From NCBI GenBank assembly GCA_963702895.1, contig OY969767.1, positions 896,001 to 960,000 on the forward strand: a DNA stretch of 64,000 bases, in the 5' to 3' direction. Made by a program: the position numbers and the translations under genes. The notes beneath the pieces are model-generated. The model saw only the letters and a program-made list of their open reading frames with translations, was not told the origin of the DNA and made no database searches. Of this stretch, positions 46,876 to 59,362 are shown one piece after another. Origin of the DNA: an uncultured Elusimicrobia bacterium. GTDB taxonomy: Bacteria > Elusimicrobiota > Elusimicrobia > 2-01-FULL-59-12. Position 1 is the stretch's first letter, and each line of letters starts with the position of its first letter.

Positions 46876-48530
46876 CCCAATTTTTCACCGCTCGGTCGCC
46901 GCGGCGACCAGGTTTCTCGCCTGCTTCGGGTACCCTTGGCTTCCCTCGGAGGCGGTTCAGACTACCGTCTGATCAATTGTCGGCCTTTTGCGGCAGTTTT
47001 CGCCGCTCCGACCCTCTGTTCGGTTCTTTCCCTCCGTCGATGCCTTCGGTGTCGCCGTCCCGTCAATCAACCGGTAGACGCGATCACCACAGACAGCCCC
47101 AACACGCCATAGCGCGCCTCTTCAAAAACCCGCCGGAACGGGTAGTTTTCCGGAATCTTTAACCACAGATAGCGCGACTTCCGGCACACTGTCCCGGCCA
47201 AGCGGATCAGCCGGTGCCGCAGCGTCTGGATCGTGAAGCTCTGCCAGGCTTTCGGCAGAACCAAATGCTTGAAGGCTGCCGTGACCACCGACGCCAACAT
47301 CGCGATCTGGAAATAGGCGGCATTGGCCATAAAATCCCGGCACGGCAGCTTGGATAATCCAAACCCACCCTCGCTCTTCATCTCCCGGTTCACGTTCTCC
47401 GACCCATCCTGCCGGTTACGGTGAAATTGCAGAACCAATCCCGGTTCCCATGTGAACCGCGTCGCCACCGCATGGTATTCAAAGTGCTCCTTATCGAAAA
47501 GCTCGCCTTGCGGCTCCTGCTGCCAGCGCACCACGACCAACCGAAATGCGGCGATATCCTTGTCCGCCTCCCCAAAAGCATGCACCGTCTCGGCAATCTC
47601 AGATCCCTTATGGGGATAGACCGGCGAGTTGTACTTCTTCCAGGCCTTCTCCGGAATCGACCGAATCGCTTCCAAAACGGCATCATCCTTGCGCGCCGTG
47701 ATGGTGAAGTCCACCCCGGCCCGATCCAATTCCCGAACCACCTTCGCCTGATACCCCGCGCTGTCTGAGCGCGCCCTCATCCGCAAACCGGAAAACTGCC
47801 GCAAGACCCGCCGCAACAAACTCGCCAGGTTCGCCATCGGGCTCGCATTGCCTGCCCGAAACGCCCCGGCCAGCGGCATCTTCAGCTCCGCGCAACTGAC
47901 CATCACCGGACAATACCCTTCCAGTCCATCGTAATTCATCAAGACGCCTTCCTTCTGTGACTCCAAAAAATAAGCGTCGATATCGATCGTCACAATAGAC
48001 AGCTCGCAGGCCCGGATCACCTTCGCCGCCGTCTTGAGCTGGACCCATCCCAACCCATGAATCGTCTTGCGCCCAAAACGCCGAAGAAATTCGCCCAACG
48101 TGTTCGCTGCCGGAAAATCCCCCAGCAAGCGCCGTATCCCCTCGTCCCCTTGCAGCAGCCCGATGTCTTCGAGCGCTTCCCCGCCCGCCTGGATCGATCC
48201 CATCAACCCCAAAATACTCTCGGCAGGATCGTATCCCCGCGCCCGCTCCTTCACCGGCAGCGCATTGAGCCGCTCCTCCAACCCCAGGCTCCGTGCCGTC
48301 CCCAACAACAACGGCAGCCCTGCAAAACTCGTCACCGCTTGATCCGTCGTCGAGACCTTGTATACGTCCAAGTTCTTCAGTAACATAAAAGCACCTCGCA
48401 GTTCAGATTCCACTCTGGCTTGCGAGGTATTTTATTGCCTCTGCGCGTCGCTGTAAAATCACGCGCTGCACCCTTTTTCAAAGCCTCCTGTGTTGACCCC
48501 TCATTTTTCACCCAATAAGTGAAACCCTTC
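46876..48530 (-). mobile_element. IS1380-family insertion sequence, ends approximate
   Basis: Transposase plus non-coding flanks; candidate end cccaatttttcacc at 46876; matching opposite IR not resolved. Confidence 0.6.
47067..48386 (-). CDS. IS1380-family DDE transposase
   Basis: TSFAGL, IDID, RSDSAG, FHRNRQ..EN..REMK, F.ANAA, LRHRLIRLAG; start-proximal hairpin at 48391-48430. Confidence 0.88.
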   Translation of the reverse strand: MLLKNLDVYKVSTTDQAVTSFAGLPLLLGTARSLGLEERLNALPVKERARGYDPAESILGLMGSIQAGGEALEDIGLLQGDEGIRRLLGDFPAANTLGEFLRRFGRKTIHGLGWVQLKTAAKVIRACELSIVTIDIDAYFLESQKEGVLMNYDGLEGYCPVMVSCAELKMPLAGAFRAGNASPMANLASLLRRVLRQFSGLRMRARSDSAGYQAKVVRELDRAGVDFTITARKDDAVLEAIRSIPEKAWKKYNSPVYPHKGSEIAETVHAFGEADKDIAAFRLVVVRWQQEPQGELFDKEHFEYHAVATRFTWEPGLVLQFHRNRQDGSENVNREMKSEGGFGLSKLPCRDFMANAAYFQIAMLASVVTAAFKHLVLPKAWQSFTIQTLRHRLIRLAGTVCRKSRYLWLKIPENYPFRRVFEEARYGVLGLSVVIASTG

Positions 48531-51816: not shown

Positions 51817-53117
51817 CGCGCGGCCTCTTTCTTGGGGATGGCCTTGTCCGCGTTCAAGGAAAGATTGAGGGACAGAACTTTTTGGAGCCGTGATTCTTTG
51901 ATGTCTTGGCTGACATCATCCGGTTCTTGAGCGGAAGTCGTGCCGGGCCTTGGCGAATATTGAAAGGCGAAAAGGCCATTAAACCGAACTTCTTCAATCA
52001 GGGAGAGGCTCTCGTCAAAATCTTCATCCGATTCGCCGGGATAACCGACAATGATGTCGGTTGTCAGGCTGATCCCAGGCAAGGCCTTTCTCAAACGTCT
52101 TACGACATCCAGATAATCCTCACGGGAGTAAAGTCGCTTCATCCGGGAAAGAACTGCGCTCGAGCCGGACTGAACGGGCAAGTGGACATGGCGGGCGACT
52201 TTCTCGCACGATTGGATGGCTTCCACCACGCGCTCACGCATGTGGACCGGATGAGGGCTCATGAAACGGATGAGTTCGACGCCTGGGAGGGCGTTGACGG
52301 CGCGCAGCAAGTCCGCGAAATCAACGACCGTATCGGGGTAACGGGGTAACGGGGTAACGGTGTCACGGCTTAACTGAGATGTTGTGACTTCGTTACTCCG
52401 ATACTCCGGTACTCCGGTACTCCGATACTCCGGTACTCCGATACTCCGGTACTCCGATACTCCGGTACGGTAGTAATAAGAATTGACGGTCTGTCCCAAC
52501 AGCATCACTTCGCGGTATCCTTCGGCAACCTTCTTCTGAATTTCGCTCAGGATCTCGGCGACGGGGCGGTACTTCTCCCGACCGCGTACCTGGGGCACGA
52601 TGCAGTAGGAGCAAGCGAGGTTACAGCCGCGCATGATGGTGATGTAGGCCGTTGACTCATTTCCAAAAAGGCCGTCCGACGTGCGACGTCCGACGCCAAT
52701 CTCCGGACCTCGGACCTCGGACCTCGGACGAAAAAGCGCAGCTTCATTTCCCCAATTCCACCTGTCCTTCAACACTTGCGCGATCGCTTCTGGAAAGTTT
52801 TCGATTTGGGTAGCGGGCGAGACAAGATCTACAAAAGGGTATTTCTTTTTGAGGGAGTCCCCCCAGAGGCTTGCCGCGCAGCCCGCGACAATAAGGAGCC
52901 GGTCCGGATTTTCTCTTTTCCAGTCGCGGAGTCGCCCGAGGTTGGAGATCGCCTTGTGTTCGGCATGTTCGCGCACGGTGCAGGTGTTCATGATCAGGAC
53001 ATCGGCGTCATCGGGTTCCAACGTCCGGACGAGCCCGCGCTCCCGGAGCGGCTGGGCCATCTCCTCCGAATCCGCGACGTTCATCTGACAACCGTAGGTG
53101 ATGAGGTGGTATTTCAT
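51810..53117 (-). CDS. miaB: tRNA-i6A37 methylthiotransferase (radical SAM); no TRAM domain evident; two in-frame repeat inserts
   Basis: TYGCQMNVADSE, NTCTVRE.AE, GCNLACSYCIVP, HLPVQSGS, TDIIVGYPGE, YSPRPGT. Confidence 0.95.
   Translation of the reverse strand: MKYHLITYGCQMNVADSEEMAQPLRERGLVRTLEPDDADVLIMNTCTVREHAEHKAISNLGRLRDWKRENPDRLLIVAGCAASLWGDSLKKKYPFVDLVSPATQIENFPEAIAQVLKDRWNWGNEAALFRPRSEVRGPEIGVGRRTSDGLFGNESTAYITIMRGCNLACSYCIVPQVRGREKYRPVAEILSEIQKKVAEGYREVMLLGQTVNSYYYRTGVSEYRSIGVPEYRSTGVPEYRSNEVTTSQLSRDTVTPLPRYPDTVVDFADLLRAVNALPGVELIRFMSPHPVHMRERVVEAIQSCEKVARHVHLPVQSGSSAVLSRMKRLYSREDYLDVVRRLRKALPGISLTTDIIVGYPGESDEDFDESLSLIEEVRFNGLFAFQYSPRPGTTSAQEPDDVSQDIKESRLQKVLSLNLSLNADKAIPKKEAARW
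52328..52468. repeat. Octamer inverted-repeat array in frame within miaB
   Basis: ggggtaac x3, then 9 units of g(a/g/t)tactcc. Confidence 0.9.
52675..52730. repeat. Heptamer inverted-repeat array in frame within miaB
   Basis: gtccgac gtgcgac gtccgac..cggacct x3 cggacg. Confidence 0.85.
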
Positions 53118-53576
53118 CTACATCCTGAATATGGGAACAAGCATTATCCTGAATAGCGAAAATATAAGCACCGATAGTGAAAGAAAAGAATATACCAGCC
53201 AACCCGCTGATGTGCGGTAAACGAACTTCAATACAATCCACTTGGCGGCCCCAGTCACAAGAGCTTCCAGCACAAGCCAGAATAACCAATGGGGTCCCGT
53301 TGGGTAAACATAGCTTGAAAGTTCAGCAGACCAATATTTCTCTGTTGGGGTTGGGATGACGAAGCTCGAACCCGCAACGGTTAGAGCCGTCATGATGAGA
53401 AGAGCGCTGGCTTGTTGCTGACGTGAAAGGTTGGAAGACCGCAATGAAATCAAAAAATCGATTGTTGCGGAAACGACCAAACCCGGAAGCAACGCCCCTA
53501 GATTTTGAAAAGGTTGCTTTCGAAAAATAGCGACCTCTAAACGGCTCCATACTATTGGTTCACCCAAATAGCTCAT
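53118..53576 (-). CDS. Cassette gene: multi-TM hypothetical protein
   Basis: Hydrophobic ORF whose TAG directly abuts the miaB ATG; start uncertain. Confidence 0.6.
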   Translation of the reverse strand: MSYLGEPIVWSRLEVAIFRKQPFQNLGALLPGLVVSATIDFLISLRSSNLSRQQQASALLIMTALTVAGSSFVIPTPTEKYWSAELSSYVYPTGPHWLFWLVLEALVTGAAKWIVLKFVYRTSAGWLVYSFLSLSVLIFSLFRIMLVPIFRM

Positions 53577-53980
53577 ATCATGCAGCCACCTTAAATTGGG
53601 CAAAATGCACTTTCTGCTCCCACCGTAAGAGCTTGCACAACGGGGGAAAGTCTTTGAGTGGCGGCTTCATCCGACAATACTGCTTTGCATCCAATTTGTT
53701 CGGTACCATCGCCAAGCGCTAGCGTCCCCATCCTTTGAGCTTAGAGGAAGGAGCAGTCCTCGGCGGTGCGCGAGATGGGTGACAGGCACCAATCTAACGC
53801 ATTTCATAGTATTTTCCTCGTTCTTAGATCTCGGTCCCATTCTTCGCTGGACGGTTGTTACGCGATGATCACCAAATAATCTTCTTCCGGGCTGCACACA
53901 ACGTGGATTGTCCTCGCGGCAGAGGTAATTCCCATCCTATGGCAGCTACGCATAAGGCAACCTTTATGCGAATCGAATGG

Positions 53981-54181
53981 TCAGGCGGCTTTTCGAGGAT
54001 GGAGAGCCTCATCCAGACTGACATAGCCAGCCTGGATCGCAGAACAAACGCGCATAAGATGAAGCTCATACATCATGTCATCAGTAGGGAATTCCTCGCG
54101 AACATGCTTCGCCAATAGCTGTAGCTTCTCTGACGGAACCTTGGCCTCTCGGGCAACTGCTTCATAGTCGAAATAACGCAT
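53981..54181 (-). CDS. Putative antitoxin partner of the PIN protein
   Basis: 66 aa, AAGGAG RBS, directly downstream of the PIN gene; EEFPTDDMMYELH. Confidence 0.65.
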   Translation of the reverse strand: MRYFDYEAVAREAKVPSEKLQLLAKHVREEFPTDDMMYELHLMRVCSAIQAGYVSLDEALHPRKAA

Positions 54182-54193
54182 GATATCGCTCCT

Positions 54194-54649
54194 TTAAATT
54201 TCTGGCGGAGCTACGATCTCAATGGTCGGCAACCCACGTGCTGTGTTGAGTTGGTTGACTAACGCCCGCCGGCGCCGGTTGACCAGATGCTTAAAATTCC
54301 ATGACAGAAGGATGTCTTGCCGCGACAAAACTGCTGCCGAAACGTGAAGCGCGTCGTCAGCCATCGTTGGCAAGAAAATGCCGCCATCAATATAATGCTT
54401 TGCCAATTCTTTCATTTCGGCGTCGATCTTCAACAGATTAAATCCTTCCAGTAATTTCAGAAGCTTAACGCGATGATCCGGATCGGGAGTTCGGGCCAGT
54501 TCTTGACGCGCCAACTCCGATGTCGAGAACTCATACTGATGAAGCCGCTTCCAAAATTCTGTTGTATCGGCCTTCCGCTCCGGCGCGCGGTCATCGAGAT
54601 AGGCGCTGAAAACGGAAGTATCCAAATAAACTCGGAGCTTTATAGACAT
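54194..54649 (-). CDS. PIN-domain (VapC-like) nuclease
   Basis: VYLDTSV, DALH, LLSWNFKHLVN. Confidence 0.88.
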   Translation of the reverse strand: MSIKLRVYLDTSVFSAYLDDRAPERKADTTEFWKRLHQYEFSTSELARQELARTPDPDHRVKLLKLLEGFNLLKIDAEMKELAKHYIDGGIFLPTMADDALHVSAAVLSRQDILLSWNFKHLVNRRRRALVNQLNTARGLPTIEIVAPPEI

Positions 54650-54832
54650 CGTATCACCGCGATAATTTTAGCACCTTGAAGCTCACTTGCTTAAAATCTT
54701 TGAGCGCTTGAAAAGCTGCTGGATAGGCTAAAAGGCCTGTTCGTCGCCTACTGAAAGCGTCTGGGCTACGTAGAGCACCCTCATCAAGGCGGCTTCCTCC
54801 ACGCTGACGGGTTGATATCCAATTTGTCGCAT

Positions 54833-54866
54833 ATGGCCAGCCGTAGGTAATGAGATGATATTTCAT
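54833..54866 (-). repeat. miaB head copy R7
   Basis: ATG AAA TAT CAT CTC ATT ACC TAC GGC TGG CCA. Confidence 0.92.
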
Positions 54867-55171
54867 GGATGTCCGCTAAGTAAGAAACGTTGTGCCAACT
54901 TGCCCAAACCATAAAGGAGGAAACAATAAAAGGTCGCAACAAGGATAACTCCCGGCCAAGTGGGGAAGGACCAATAAGCGCTCATGCCAAGGCCCAGGGG
55001 ACGTAGCACTGGTCGTGCAGGCAGATATATTGCGTAGGCGAGTGATAGCAGATTAGTCGCCAGAACCGGTAGGTGCTCTCCCCATAGCGACAATACCGCC
55101 AGGCTGGAGATATTCCACACCAAGAATGCGCCGGGAAGAAGAAGGGCCAGATGCCGCTTAAGGTATGTCAC
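54863..55171 (-). CDS. Cassette gene: 102-aa membrane protein, copy A
   Basis: GGGAGG RBS, hydrophobic, near-identical to 57685-57993. Confidence 0.8.
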   Translation of the reverse strand: MTYLKRHLALLLPGAFLVWNISSLAVLSLWGEHLPVLATNLLSLAYAIYLPARPVLRPLGLGMSAYWSFPTWPGVILVATFYCFLLYGLGKLAQRFLLSGHP

Positions 55172-55278
55172 ATTCCTCCCCTATCGCATGCTCGGCTGCC
55201 CATGCGAGCGTCCGCGCAATACCTTCCAGTCTATCTGCCGCCAAAATCCGCTTGGCAGAACAGTGAATCCAATCCATT

Positions 55279-55311
55279 CGGCCAGCCATAGGCGATCAAA
55301 AAATAGTTCAT
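55279..55311 (-). repeat. Degenerate miaB head copy R6
   Basis: ATG AAC TAT TTT TTG ATC GCC TAT GGC TGG CCG (MNYFLIAYGWP). Confidence 0.75.
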
Positions 55312-55463
55312 TTTTAGGGTTGTTTTGAGATGCCGGATTCATTAGAGCCAAACCCATCGATGAAAACTTCAGTGGGTGGTCAGAACCGTACGTAACCACG
55401 CCGGAGATCATATCGTGAATTTGGAGGCCATGGGCCTCTCAGAAAGAACAGGCCTCAGTCACT

Positions 55464-55745
55464 TTAAGCGGCCCGGTGGTGCGAGCGGTGGTTGATGGCG
55501 CGGGCCACCAGCGGATAGCGTTCGGGATGCGTCAGCGATTCCAAGGCCAGATCGATATCAAGGTCCGGCCAATAGAGGTGACTCCCATGGAGCAGGCTCA
55601 CATGGTGAATTTGGTTTATGGTGGCGTTTCCGAACCACGGGAACAGCCGATAAGGCAAAAAGTATTCTTGTCCTTTCACCAGCAGCCATACAGCCTGCTT
55701 GTTGACACTCAAAATCTCAACGGCTGAAATGCTCTTTCCATGCAT
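55464..55745 (-). CDS. DUF2442-like protein (putative TA component)
   Basis: LPY..FPWF..AT, HLYWPDLDIDL..ESL..PERYPL. Confidence 0.8.
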   Translation of the reverse strand: MHGKSISAVEILSVNKQAVWLLVKGQEYFLPYRLFPWFGNATINQIHHVSLLHGSHLYWPDLDIDLALESLTHPERYPLVARAINHRSHHRAA

Positions 55746-55956
55746 GGATAATCTCCACTTTCCGAGATTCAATGATACGGCGTAACTCCAGGAGTCGTCG
55801 CGACGTGAAACCACTATGGGTCGCAAGGGACACAATGGGTTCAAGCCAGAATTTCGCTTCTCCTTCTGGCGAGACCACATGAACATGAATGCGTGATTCT
55901 TCGCGTGAAAAGAAGAAAAAGCGGTAATTCTTATGACGAAATATCGTTGGACTCAC
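55717..55956 (-). CDS. DUF4160-like protein (putative TA component)
   Basis: YRFFFFSREESRIHVHV..GEAKFWL..AW.EHF. Confidence 0.85.
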   Translation of the reverse strand: MSPTIFRHKNYRFFFFSREESRIHVHVVSPEGEAKFWLEPIVSLATHSGFTSRRLLELRRIIESRKVEIIHAWKEHFSR

Positions 55957-56003
55957 GGGTTATGACTAAAATTATACCCTTTCTCCTCTTGCTTGTGGTA
56001 TCC

Positions 56004-56196
56004 CGCGCAAACGCCCCAGGTTGGAGAGGGCCTTGTGCTCGGCATGCTCGCGCACGGTGCAGGTGTTCATGAGGATGACGTCCGCTTGTCCGACGTCCGA
56101 CGTCTGAAGGAACCCGCGATCCTGGAGCGGCTGGGCCATCTCCTCCGAATCCGCGACGTTCATCTGGCATCCATATGTAATCAGGTGGTATTTCAT
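56004..56196 (-). pseudogene. Long miaB head copy R5 (first ~64 codons of a divergent miaB allele)
   Basis: MKYHLITYGCQMNVADSEEMAQPL..NTCTVREHAEHKALSNLGRLR, then unrelated sequence. Confidence 0.92.
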
Positions 56197-56744
56197 TTGA
56201 GCTGTAGACTGTTAAGAATCTCTAGGTAAATATTCTTGAACAGTGGTTGTGAGAGTGGATAGATGATTTCGATAACGTCAGCTTTTTTATAAGCCTGAAT
56301 GTAGTAGTGTGCGTTACGCCCGATCTCAGAAACCTCGCAACGGATGGCAGGACGTTTGCCAACGGTAACCTGTTCTACCTGCAAGGGTGGAGTTGTGGCG
56401 TTGTGATAAAAATCTTTTGCCTCAAACCACTTATGTATGGCGAGCTTCTGCGGATTTTGATTAACACCTAAATTTATAGTGAAGTTGGATTCGTTATCTA
56501 AGCTTTTGTCATTTTCTTCCGAAAACTCTTTCACATTGCTTAGAGTAACGCGGTATAAGTCTGTAAACGTTTTTTCTCGCACATGCCATTCCGATGGATA
56601 TCGGAGCTGAATTCCTGCCGTTTCCAATTTTAAGTTTGACCATGGCGATGGATCAGACATAACGGGCTGTACGCTGCACAGTGTCAAAAAGCTGGTAAAC
56701 GCAGCGGTTGCTAATATGTACACGACATTTCTCAATCTTTGCAT
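56193..56744 (-). CDS. Cassette gene: exported PsbP-like protein
   Basis: Signal-like N-terminus, LRYPSEW and ILNSLQLK pattern; stop overlaps head R5. Confidence 0.6.
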   Translation of the reverse strand: MQRLRNVVYILATAAFTSFLTLCSVQPVMSDPSPWSNLKLETAGIQLRYPSEWHVREKTFTDLYRVTLSNVKEFSEENDKSLDNESNFTINLGVNQNPQKLAIHKWFEAKDFYHNATTPPLQVEQVTVGKRPAIRCEVSEIGRNAHYYIQAYKKADVIEIIYPLSQPLFKNIYLEILNSLQLK

Positions 56745-56784
56745 GGCTTCAGCGCACCTCAATTGATATCCAATTTGTTTTATA

Positions 56785-56817
56785 TGGCCAGCCGTAGGTG
56801 ATCAGGTAATATTTCAT
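56785..56817 (-). repeat. miaB head copy R4
   Basis: ATG AAA TAT TAC CTG ATC ACC TAC GGC TGG CCA. Confidence 0.9.
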
Positions 56818-57383
56818 TCGATAACCTGAGCTTCTTTTTGAAGTCGCAACCATTCGGCTTCGATCGCCAACTCTTTGGCCCAAAGGTTGATGTAAGTTAA
56901 ATCAAGTTTGTTGAATTGCACTTCATAAACACGAAGCGCATCGATGAATTGTTTTTCGCTGCCACCGGATTGTTGTGCCCATCGCAGCTTCATTAGGATC
57001 GTATCTTCAGCCCGAGTCACCTGCATCTTCAAGCCGAAGAAATCTTCAGTGTATCGCCGCTGAAATCGGGACTGATCAAAGGCATCAGAAGTCAGGGGCC
57101 AGAAGTCGACCTTGTCCCCACCATTGACATCGATGAGGTTCACCATTTGACCGGATTTCAAAGCGTCGCGGAGGCCATCCGCGTCTAGATAATAGTGAGG
57201 GGACGGGAAGGCGGCGAGAAGCCGTGGGATGGAGGCCGCTTGGATTGCGATGACCACATCGATATCATGCGTGGCTCGCGGTTCTCCTTGCAGGCTGGAA
57301 ACCACCGATCCCGTGATCATGTAATCGATTTGCGCGGATTCGAGTGTTTGAACGACTTTGCTTAGTAATTCCTGTTGTGACAT
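56814..57383 (-). CDS. Nucleotidyltransferase-like putative toxin
   Basis: YMITGS..GEPRATHDIDVV, EDTILMKL. Confidence 0.8.
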   Translation of the reverse strand: MSQQELLSKVVQTLESAQIDYMITGSVVSSLQGEPRATHDIDVVIAIQAASIPRLLAAFPSPHYYLDADGLRDALKSGQMVNLIDVNGGDKVDFWPLTSDAFDQSRFQRRYTEDFFGLKMQVTRAEDTILMKLRWAQQSGGSEKQFIDALRVYEVQFNKLDLTYINLWAKELAIEAEWLRLQKEAQVIE

Positions 57384-57565
57384 TTATCGAGCCGGTCGCG
57401 GACAATTTCTTGTAGTTTTTCTCCTGAGATCCCGGCGAAGCGTTTGCGCAGTCCATGAATAAAGAGCTGTTTGGAAAATTCAGACAGTTCAAACGCCTTT
57501 TGCAGCCGCTGAGCAGGCGACAACGCGCGCAACATCCGCAGATAAACGGGAGAGTTCTTTTTCAT
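57362..57565 (-). CDS. Small putative antitoxin
   Basis: 67 aa, LRALSPAQRL..AFELS; overlaps the toxin start. Confidence 0.7.
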   Translation of the reverse strand: MKKNSPVYLRMLRALSPAQRLQKAFELSEFSKQLFIHGLRKRFAGISGEKLQEIVRDRLDKCHNRNY

Positions 57566-57655
57566 GTGGGATGCGACTATTGTACTCAGATTATGCGGGC
57601 ACCTGAACGGCTCCGATTGCGTGGCACTGATTGTTCAGTAGGAACCCTGAACGTA

Positions 57656-57688
57656 TGGCCAGCCGTAAGTGATGAGGTGGTACTTCAT
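57656..57688 (-). repeat. miaB head copy R3
   Basis: ATG AAG TAC CAC CTC ATC ACT TAC GGC TGG CCA. Confidence 0.92.
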
Positions 57689-57993
57689 GGGTGTCCGTCA
57701 AAAAAGTAACGCTGTGCCAACTTGCCCAAACCATAAAGGAGGAAACAATAAAAGGTCGCAACAAGGATTACGCCCGGCCAAGTGGGGAAGGACCAATAAG
57801 CGCTCATGACAAGGCCCAGGGGACGTAGCAGTGGTCGTGCAGGCAGATAGATTGCGTAGGCGAGTGATAGCAGATTAGTCGCCAGAACCGGTAGGTGTTC
57901 TCCCCATAGCGACAATACCGCCAGGCTGGAGATATTCCACACCAAGAATGCGCCGGGAAGAAGAAGGGCCAGATGCCGCTTAAGGTATGTCAC
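57685..57993 (-). CDS. Cassette gene: 102-aa membrane protein, copy B
   Basis: Near-identical to 54863-55171. Confidence 0.8.
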   Translation of the reverse strand: MTYLKRHLALLLPGAFLVWNISSLAVLSLWGEHLPVLATNLLSLAYAIYLPARPLLRPLGLVMSAYWSFPTWPGVILVATFYCFLLYGLGKLAQRYFFDGHP

Positions 57994-58100
57994 ATTCCTC
58001 CCCTATCGCATGCTCGGTTGTCCATGCGAGCGTCCGCGCAATACCTTCCAGTCTATCTGCCGCCAAAATCTGCTTGGCAGGATAGTGAATCCAATCCATT

Positions 58101-58193
58101 CGGCCAGCCGTGCCACTTCCTGTTTTGAGAATAGGCGGCACCGTTCGGGCACAAACGCATGCCCTCGCGGAAGGTGATGAGGTGGAATTTCAC
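58101..58193 (-). repeat. miaB head copy R2, split by a ~60-nt insert
   Basis: GTG AAA TTC CAC CTC ATC ACC T[insert]AC GGC TGG CCG. Confidence 0.78.
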
Positions 58194-59023
58194 GTGGCGC
58201 CTCTCTTCTTGGCGACGACAACGAGAGAGCCTCCCCACGGAAGCGACCGGCCTGAGAAAATCAATCTCTCGTCGGCCCGCATCACGAAATCTCCCATGGC
58301 ATCCAACCACGGCGGGAGATGCAATTCGCTGTCATCCATTCCGCTCCGTTTTTTCATAAACCGATTCTTGACTCTTGAAAGATACATGGCAGGAAAGAGT
58401 GAAAACACAAAGGAGCTGATGAAAGAGACCTCGAGCCCTGCTTGAGACACCTTTTGCACCAGTTCTTTGCGAGAGTACCTGCGTTTATGCATTGCAACAA
58501 CGTCAGTTTGACTCCAGAGGGATGGGTGTTGAGGGACTGTCAAGAACAGTAGTCCGTTGACTTTCAGAGCAGCATGGATCTGTTTAAGGACGATGACATC
58601 ATTCTCGATATGTTCAAGAACATCAAATACCCCAATTCCATCGAAGGCTTCCACGTAAGGTAAGCGCGTTGCATCCAGCTGAACCAGTTCCACACCATCG
58701 AGCCTCTTGGCAGCCCATTTTAGACCAGCGAGGTTCAATTCTGCCCCGGTCAAATGAAGATTCTTAAATTTCGACAGCCCGTTCAGAACAAATCCTGTTC
58801 CGCATCCAATCTCGAGAAACTTCGCTGTGCGATTTCCAAAGTGCTGGCATATGAGGTGCTCAAGGATACGTTGCCTGCTACGGAACCAAAAACTTCCCGC
58901 CTCCGACCTGTAGAGCGCTGGGTAGCTTTCAGGAGGAAAATCAGAATTTCCGGAACCCAGTTCGGGAGCGTAACATTTGATGTTATCGATAACTACGTAT
59001 GAAGGTTCAGTCCCTTCGCTCAT
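58190..59023 (-). CDS. Cassette gene: class I SAM-dependent methyltransferase
   Basis: FWFRSR, LEIGCGTG, FDVLEHI, LTVP, HKRRYS. Confidence 0.88.
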   Translation of the reverse strand: MSEGTEPSYVVIDNIKCYAPELGSGNSDFPPESYPALYRSEAGSFWFRSRQRILEHLICQHFGNRTAKFLEIGCGTGFVLNGLSKFKNLHLTGAELNLAGLKWAAKRLDGVELVQLDATRLPYVEAFDGIGVFDVLEHIENDVIVLKQIHAALKVNGLLFLTVPQHPSLWSQTDVVAMHKRRYSRKELVQKVSQAGLEVSFISSFVFSLFPAMYLSRVKNRFMKKRSGMDDSELHLPPWLDAMGDFVMRADERLIFSGRSLPWGGSLVVVAKKRGAT

Positions 59024-59080
59024 GAATAGGACCCTGGGTGTTCTGCATTGCTTTGGCGAGCCGTGACGCCACCCGCGAAA

Positions 59081-59215
59081 TTAGATACGTCCGACGCCAT
59101 AGCACCGTTGCAATATCCAGTGGACAGCGAATTCTGGCCAAAAAATGGCGGCAATGCCAATCGATGAGAAGATTGCGATGACCGACATGGGGATCATAAG
59201 GCCGCGTTCAAACAT
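59081..59215 (-). CDS. 44-aa single-TM peptide coupled (TAATG) to the head R1 ORF
   Basis: MFERGLMIPMSVIAIFSSIGIAAIFWPEFAVHWILQRCYGVGRI, read manually. Confidence 0.35.
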   Translation of the reverse strand: MFERGLMIPMSVIAIFSSIGIAAIFWPEFAVHWILQRCYGVGRI

Positions 59216-59316
59216 TAGCGAAAAACCTTTCTGTGCCCATCGGGAGCGTCTGGGCCGCCTTCAGGAACCTTGCTTCTGGGTACTCCTCGGCGAAAAGATG
59301 CTGAATCAAACCCATT

Positions 59317-59349
59317 CGACCAGACATAGGTGATCAAGTGGTATTTCAC
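59317..59349 (-). repeat. miaB head copy R1 (promoter-proximal)
   Basis: GTG AAA TAC CAC TTG ATC ACC TAT GTC TGG TCG. Confidence 0.88.
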
Positions 59350-59356
59350 GTCGGAG

Positions 59357-59362
59357 ATTATA
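59357..59362 (-). promoter_or_regulatory. -10 box TATAAT 7 nt upstream of head R1 (probable leaderless miaB promoter)
   Basis: agcag TATAAT ctccgac GTGAAATAC; no SD sequence before the GTG. Confidence 0.6.

Follow-up and report, generated by a model that had tools for sequence, protein, structure and literature searches.

Small gene units stacked at the start of miaB in an uncultured Elusimicrobia bacterium, and a large serine recombinase family associated with the site

Introduction

In an uncultured Elusimicrobia bacterium the gene miaB is preceded by a row of small gene units, each of which ends in a copy of the miaB start. The row lies in a 64,000-nucleotide stretch of contig OY969767.1 (positions 896,001 to 960,000, referred to as the window), which belongs to a 2.72-Mb genome assembled as a single contig (G000). 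The explanation that we favor, with a probability of roughly 0.6, is that the small units are non-autonomous cassettes that were stacked at the miaB-proximal TG dinucleotide by visiting islands carrying a large serine recombinase (LSR). The array is real and its kind recurs across hosts. Tandem accretion that includes integrase-free members is already established; the new elements are gene-sized units, host-type expression ends, the depth of stacking and a target that is a coding start. Throughout, G labels denote genomes (relatives in the Elusimicrobiota), L labels loci and C labels contigs. Published statements are taken from excerpts of the papers cited.

An array of displaced miaB starts

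Eight miaB starts are present on the minus strand of the window, at 59349, 58193, 57688, 56817, 56196, 55311, 54866 and 53117, the last being that of the intact gene. All encode MKYHLITYG or a near variant. They had been listed in an earlier note, made from the letters of this DNA alone, and a six-frame scan of the whole genome found the peptide motif in these eight places only. When 27 nt of the intact start are used for a DNA scan, six of the displaced starts, or heads, differ at 3–6 positions and the seventh (55311) at more than 8, with chance matches starting from 8 mismatches. The number of mismatches shows no gradient along the array. The units measure 445–1749 nt, in keeping with the 0.45–1.75 kb of the note, which was also right that five heads overlap the upstream stop codon as ATGA or GTGA and that the true start directly follows TAG. 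The GC content of the units is 42–54% vs 57% for the genome.

The match of the displaced heads to miaB ends after the TG of Cys10, and the base that precedes it, the third position of Gly9, is variable. The junctions are two-armed, with a conserved arm that is not miaB following the TG in six of the seven units. As junctions diverge from miaB straight after the conserved TG and the base before it varies, the TG is the predicted two-base crossover core of the LSR described below. The earlier note gave every head about nine codons, which is correct except for 56196, where the match runs for 193 nt to 56004, and 58193, which is split by a 60-nt insert. Allowing for the insert places the crossover TG of head 2 at 58106-58105 and unit 2 is thus 445 nt long, as is unit 6. 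The membrane protein that the note saw "again" follows from this pair: the two units, positioned three units apart, are one cassette, 94.8% identical over the full length and with both ends in common. The coupled nucleotidyltransferase of unit 3 is full length (its homologues are mostly 187–191 aa) and its natural end falls exactly on the head, so this junction is precise.

The TATAAT sequence at 59357-59362, upstream of the outermost head, may have been the -10 box of the original miaB promoter. The same spacing is seen before miaB at the empty site of G003, and 54 nt of the surrounding upstream region match the corresponding end of array L101 at 80%. A consensus promoter scan returned 6 sites vs 6.3 expected, and this TATAAT was not among them.

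A large serine recombinase family at the same TG

The array contains no recombinase gene, as the earlier note stated. The idea that the system lacks an enzyme of its own has, in contrast, to be given up, as this TG is also used by a miaB-specific LSR family found on larger islands. When 401 genomes of the phylum were searched with a profile, 16 genomes and 17 loci matched. At 14 of these loci the LSR gene ends within the replacement start of an intact miaB (one gene has an internal stop); the remaining three comprise the upstream member of a tandem and two loci at contig ends. The G007 LSR is 537 aa long and overlaps the new miaB head. Both the G007 and the G002 island encode the LSR, with its Resolvase, Recombinase and zinc ribbon domains, together with a small serine recombinase and a Rep or AAA_25 protein. 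At this attachment (att) site they therefore have the composition of LSR integrative elements, which neither the array nor the genome of the window has.

Two arrangements show that the site is used in tandem. In G237, islands of 20.3 and 16.2 kb lie one behind the other at the same TG, so the hybrid site is reusable. In G002, an island stands directly beside a small unit, and its LSR reads across the TG into this 655-nt unit, which adds a 36-aa tail to the protein. The G237 islands (C15:594,000-631,000) also contain open reading frames (ORFs) that resemble, as judged by eye, restriction-modification and other defence genes. At L126 (G118) the LSR is on the strand opposite miaB and a copy of the LSR 3' end with a replacement head is still found before miaB; this is either an inversion or an assembly artefact.

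The conserved left arms of the units align as one peptide family, the C-terminal tail of the LSR. In a sample of 40 arms, 31 are open for at least 25 codons in the LSR frame vs 15 and 3 in the other frames; arms that begin with miaB-type sequence, short arms and three decayed or duplicate junctions were excluded, and some of the arms had been chosen by a pattern spanning their first 6 nt. In L101, a 461-nt unit has a left arm that matches the G007 island arm at 23/24 nt.

The window genome has no cognate LSR. Its sole Resolvase-domain gene (C1:372976-374667) was considered and rejected, being 21% identical to the miaB LSR and overlapping tRNA-Met. That gene belongs to a separate island (C1:367000-374723), where the 563-aa LSR overlapping tRNA-Met lies beside a nickel/cobalt transporter-like cluster. 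Five further genomes that have units or repeats and no island (G005, G010, G011, G038 and G012, 81–95% complete) gave no cognate LSR match, and no relative of the LSR was confirmed on viral contigs. It is by association that this family is taken to be the enzyme of the miaB TG.

The site in relatives and in metagenomes

Ten genomes of the same family were examined and the miaB start is assembled in eight. Four of the eight sites are empty (G001, G003, G004, G006) and four are occupied at the same TG: by one small unit each in G005 and G010, by a 9.8-kb island in G007 and by an island followed by a 655-nt unit in G002. Beyond the family, a unit of 1530 nt occurs in G011, from the same order, and one of 587 nt, which has its own head, in G038, from the same class. 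A pattern scan of metagenomes yielded 78 loci, of which 61 were discarded as chance matches because they have no miaB-type head, leaving 17 loci on 15 contigs with a true head. Together, the same anatomy is found in five same-order genomes and these 15 contigs. The metagenome arrays carry different cargo and comprise 7 units (L067), 10 units (L083/L095), 3 closed units (L080) and 2 units (L101). One cassette is common to two hosts in which its neighbours differ (81.5% identity over 552 nt, up to the right junction). Displaced heads were found in 0 of 20 further class-level genomes, where three 5-mismatch matches were due to chance; the arrays are therefore patchy.

The earlier note proposed that cassettes insert one after another at miaB codon ~9-10, each bringing a replacement head, to be compared with the upstream content and order of relatives, where identity would speak against it. 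The relatives differ and independent arrays exist. The empty, single-unit, full-island, tandem-island and long-array states agree with the proposal; unit 5 is a misfit to so simple a scheme.

A separate observation concerns G012 (L037:1-230), where at least three near-identical, cargo-free 60-nt tandem repeats stand directly before miaB, each ending at the TG core. The contig begins inside this run of repeats.

Closed units and their right ends

Thirty-four closed units from 10 loci were compared. They range from 67 to 4476 nt with a median of 773, and apart from the tail no remnant of a recombinase, Rep or helicase is seen in them. On the right, most end in host-type sequence, and none of the 34 has the island-type recombinase 3' end that is present in G118. 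Thirteen units are coupled to the head by ATGA or GTGA, one abuts the stop and seven have a -10 box, with none having both. In L067, six heads are accompanied by a block of 70–80 nt, from the -35 box on, that is 79–85% identical to the native promoter region of G007. These ends suggest that a unit would be retained only if it restored miaB expression. In units of other hosts, 36 of 45 ORFs are co-oriented.

The heads were also compared for the type of change, with heads counted as independent in the statistics. In the window, differences are mostly synonymous (20 vs 10 nonsynonymous, on 5.3 vs 18.7 sites, p = 2e-7), the corresponding counts being 13 vs 3 in L067 and 21 vs 28 in L083/L095 (p = 4e-4). 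The heads thus once worked as miaB starts. Mostly synonymous differences without a gradient along the array are what is expected of heads that come from several lineages, from which they were probably drawn.

Model for the stacking of units

In the model, the Cys10 TG of miaB would be the attB of an Elusimicrobiota LSR family that travels on islands of 10–20 kb. On these islands the LSR gene spans the att site; its 3' part also serves as a new miaB start, and the last ~35 LSR residues are encoded at the opposite, left end. Each unit has an island-type left arm, cargo and a host-type miaB start, and this start would restore miaB together with its expression, either through translational coupling or through a copied promoter. 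The LSR of a visiting island would insert the unit at the miaB-proximal TG, older units would be pushed upstream and the island would be lost afterwards.

Naming the host halves of the TG site B|B' and the island halves P|P', a circular form of a unit would carry B|P', an attL-like site. There are two routes by which such a circle could enter. Where an island is resident, recombination between the unit circle and attR would yield just what is seen in G002. In the other route the left half-sites, each constrained to encode MiaB, may be interchangeable, as the G237 tandem suggests. Because a site pair permitting excision would be found only at the miaB-proximal unit, a stack is predicted in place of integron-like shuffling.

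Several results weigh against stacking by visiting islands. Canonical serine integrases recombine attP with attB only, unless a directionality factor is present (PMC3783163), and since the unit circle would be attL-like, relaxed pairing has to be assumed; exceptions to canonical pairing are reported for A118 and CcrA/B (PMC3783163). No circle or excision junction was observed. Among the sequencing runs listed, none was of RNA and one DNA run contained 0.10 of the words; its five near-identical contigs (151–245 nt) lie on miaB, unit 7 and unit 6, with none bridging a junction, and the single joint listed from the run (side 29) fits the intact miaB of another organism. The G007 and G002 islands yielded no identifiable transfer genes. 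At the level of the units, 13 of the 34 have neither strict coupling nor a -10 box, only two pairs have bodies in common, unit 5 and one L067 unit begin with miaB sequence where the island arm should be, and two L083/L095 units change from miaB-like to island-like ~7 nt to the right of the TG. Finally, array L092 (two heads, the second at oriented position 1152, with a native-type promoter) ends at queA-tgt-yajC and not at miaB. A cassette of L092 is also present in L080.

Alternative explanations

The same arms could arise if units had never moved by themselves. Each would be the left end of an island that lost its core, recombinase included, by deletion; an intact miaB allele would then have served to repair the right end, promoter and start included, thereby regenerating the target. 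In the literature the default view is that islands decay into integrase-free cis-mobilizable elements (CIMEs) and then accrete (PMC5704250; PMC3146451), and it agrees with left arms that are island left ends, with the host promoter copies of 70–80 nt at six L067 heads, with a unit 5 that resembles an illegitimate join at codon 64 and with the majority of units being found once. Plain deletion, however, should leave a recombinase 3' end on the right, as in G118, and 0 of 34 units have one. Nor are both ends shared by units 2 and 6, one cassette in two hosts, or the recurrent, precise coupling of a full-length cargo gene readily produced in this way, and we consider it unlikely that deletion and repair made the array, while giving the idea some weight. 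A different proposal retains the recombinase for the first junctions and ascribes later spread and duplication to recombinase-free homology between the repeated heads of related strains. It would account for the cognate LSR being missing from six of six genomes that have units or repeats and no island (the window genome and the five named above), and the promoter-head blocks of L067 offer 70–80 nt of homology; a few junctions are shifted or mosaic, and the 60-nt tandem repeats of G012, identical and ending at the core, point the same way. The heads of the window are nevertheless just 29 nt long, with 3 to >8 positions deviating from the intact start. Short, diverged heads are a poor substrate for RecA. 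An intact mutS lies next door and most junctions fall exactly at the TG, so that homology-driven spread appears improbable.

That the array is an assembly chimera of the miaB loci of several strains, or else an integron-type array, is hardly credible. It is true that none of the junctions here is spanned by a public contig. The same anatomy, though, is present in five same-order genomes and 15 metagenome contigs, and the genome is one contig. As for an integron, attC core pairs are lacking, and for the catalytic parts of the four tyrosine recombinases of the genome XerC/XerD or generic models rank first or close to first, while the integron-integrase cut-off is missed by a wide margin. Stacking by visiting LSR islands therefore remains our preferred account.

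Comparison with known systems

Integrons are marked by the tyrosine recombinase IntI and by attC hairpin sites between cassettes. The array resembles integrons and the clusters of attC sites lacking integron-integrases (CALINs) in having ordered, small and mostly co-oriented cassettes, rich in toxin-antitoxin pairs and unknown exported proteins, with the newest at the insertion site. It differs in that IntI and attC are absent, the att site is double-stranded with a TG core, the enzyme is not resident and stack-like behaviour is predicted. No attC core pair (RYYYAAC...GTTRRRY, 40–140 nt apart) exists on either strand, consistent with the earlier note, and no long inverted repeat is found at the junctions. 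The four PF00589 genes of the genome are not near the array and score 21–125 against TIGR02249, whose cut-off is 265 (three of them as catalytic domains only). The array is thus not placed among integrons or CALINs.

CIMEs of the ICESt1 family are decayed islands that lack the integrase and keep their own attL and attR (PMC5704250). As in tandem accretion of these elements, the units are integrase-free, and insertion at the regenerated site beside the target gene pushes older elements away (PMC5704250). The 34 units lack integration and transfer genes, with no such remnant beyond the tail arm. With respect to the parental attL and attR, left arms are island-type but right ends are mostly host-type and do not overlap a recombinase. 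Moreover, the units have a host-type right end (start, often promoter), are gene-sized, are stacked up to 10 deep and occupy a site that splits a coding 5' end. The array therefore fits CIMEs partly.

The staphylococcal cassette chromosome (SCC) inserts at the 3' end of rlmH, unlike the elements here, which target the 5' end of miaB, a gene that scores above the TIGR01574 cut-off. The best NCBIfam model for the G007 LSR is CcrB; scores of 126, 98 and 81 against Ccr models with cut-offs of 900, 900 and 700 show that it is not a Ccr, and the array is not assigned to SCC or pseudo-SCC. What SCC composites and ccr-less islands share with it are an LSR, a protein-coding target and tandem integration that records chronology (PMC13739063). 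A set of 450 att-flanked SCC elements lacks ccr, and extracted elements have medians near 30 kb (PMC13739063).

Rows of islands parted by partial target copies, some without an integration module, are also described for the ssrA islands of Dehalococcoides (PMC3146451), whose DsiB is a 540-aa serine recombinase (PMC3146451), and for tycheposons (bioRxiv 2020.12.28.424599). The targets there are the 3' ends of tmRNA and tRNA genes and no new promoter or start codon is required. Islands associated with dusA do integrate in the 5' end of a tRNA-modification gene (PMC4482086), and the same paper cites an element in the MiaB-like gene rimO. In an LSR survey, UPF0004 (the N-terminal domain of MiaB and RimO) is tabulated for 6 target clusters and for 0 random ones (PMC10083194). 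These elements differ in being large and carrying their own integrase, and the excerpts of PMC4482086 and PMC10083194 describe no integrase-free arrays.

Features and cargo of the window

The features are collected in Table 1. The cargo comprises three toxin-antitoxin-like pairs, a methyltransferase and four exported or membrane proteins without family matches; PADLOC, run on 10 cargo proteins, gave a generic methyltransferase match only. The pair in unit 3 is named from weak family matches (E 0.002 and 0.0004). For the hydrophobic protein of units 2 and 6 there is no Pfam match and no homologue at E<=0.001. The probable exported protein of unit 4, called PsbP-like in the earlier note, has no family match in Pfam, NCBIfam or PADLOC, and that label is dropped. 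Homologues of the 66-aa gene of unit 7 occur within the G011 unit (54%) and next to junction L057 (82%).

Table 1. Features of the miaB array, in window coordinates
Feature	Position	Strand	Basis or remark
Putative TATAAT -10 box of the original miaB promoter	59357..59362	-	sequence; 7 nt before head 1
Head 1, original host miaB start, displaced and decayed (VKYHLITYV), ending in the TG core	59321..59349	-	
Unit 1: decayed recombinase-tail arm, S-adenosylmethionine (SAM) methyltransferase, split head 2	58105..59320	-	
Class I SAM methyltransferase, 277 aa; stop overlaps head 2 (GTGA)	58190..59023	-	Pfam Methyltransf_23, E 1e-13
Head 2 with 60-nt insert (58171-58112)	58105..58193	-	
Unit 2, 445 nt: tail arm, 102-aa hydrophobic protein (57993-57685), head 3 (57688-57660)	57660..58104	-	
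Unit 3, 871 nt: Rv0078B-like antitoxin (57565-57362), nucleotidyltransferase (57383-56814), head 4 (56817-56789)	56789..57659	-	
Unit 4, 621 nt, 42% GC: tail arm, probable exported protein (56741-56193), head 5 (56196-56168)	56168..56788	-	
5' fragment of a divergent miaB allele, 193 nt, 64 codons, cut at Arg64	56004..56196	-	83% identity
Unit 5, 885 nt: miaB fragment in place of tail arm, DUF4160 (55956-55717), DUF2442 (55748-55464), decayed head 6 (55311-55283)	55283..56167	-	
Unit 6, 445 nt: second copy of the unit 2 cassette (gene 55171-54863), head 7 (54866-54838)	54838..55282	-	
Unit 7, 1749 nt: tail arm, PIN toxin (54649-54194), 66-aa partner (54181-53981), 161-aa hydrophobic protein (53603-53118), present miaB head	53089..54837	-	
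Predicted TG crossover dinucleotide in miaB Cys10, the regenerated target	53089..53090	-	match of displaced heads and island ends to miaB is lost directly after TG
Intact miaB, 435 aa	51810..53117	-	TIGR01574, 385.5 bits vs cut-off 355.3

The 60-nt insert in head 2 preserves the reading frame and is present once in the genome. The miaB fragment in unit 5 has no stop or frameshift, and its differences are concentrated in a variable region. This allele and the intact one are both 65–73% identical to eight relatives, so neither stands out as the native one. The intact MiaB has no TRAM domain match, and the gene contains an in-frame insert of 8-nt tandem repeats (52379-52482) whose family recurs in intergenic clusters genome-wide, for example at C1:742,700-751,300. 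Elsewhere in the window, an IS1380-like DDE transposase lies downstream of mutS (47067-48413), with another copy at C1:508526-509872. There are 13 IS110 transposase matches elsewhere in the genome and none in the window.

Implications

No published description of miaB cassette arrays was found in the literature searched, which did not extend to subscription papers and bioRxiv supplements; TIGER/Islander may list miaB islands.

As a tentative extension, the units may belong to a serine-recombinase analogue of the integron. Gene-sized cassettes would circulate among Elusimicrobiota in circular form, with an att site built from a host gene start and a recombinase tail, would be captured by visiting islands and would carry an expression module that rescues the host gene. 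They may supply a tail that switches the form of a resident recombinase, as the G002 read-through suggests, and the design may extend to other starts such as that of atpG in this genome. A decoy atpG start is found 2.2 kb upstream of atpG (C1:569393-571581), with accessory genes between them in the ATP synthase operon. Among the matches listed for four other repeat clusters of the genome, no gene-start array is recognisable. At C1:627472-634061, four copies of a ~120-nt repeat and a 579-nt duplication surround accessory genes and an insertion sequence (IS) element near a PIN paralogue.

We know of no settled account of how integron cassettes are born. The ends of the miaB cassettes are recognisable pieces of host and recombinase genes, so here cassette birth is traceable. 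A cassette-stacking hotspot of this type is overlooked by integron and island finders because neither attC nor an integrase is present. The islands provide a natural LSR family with predicted attB and attP sites and apparently relaxed half-site pairing, which would be of use for work on directionality control and as an integration tool. For the organisms themselves, the arrays are a source of small accessory genes and candidate defence genes in an uncultured phylum.

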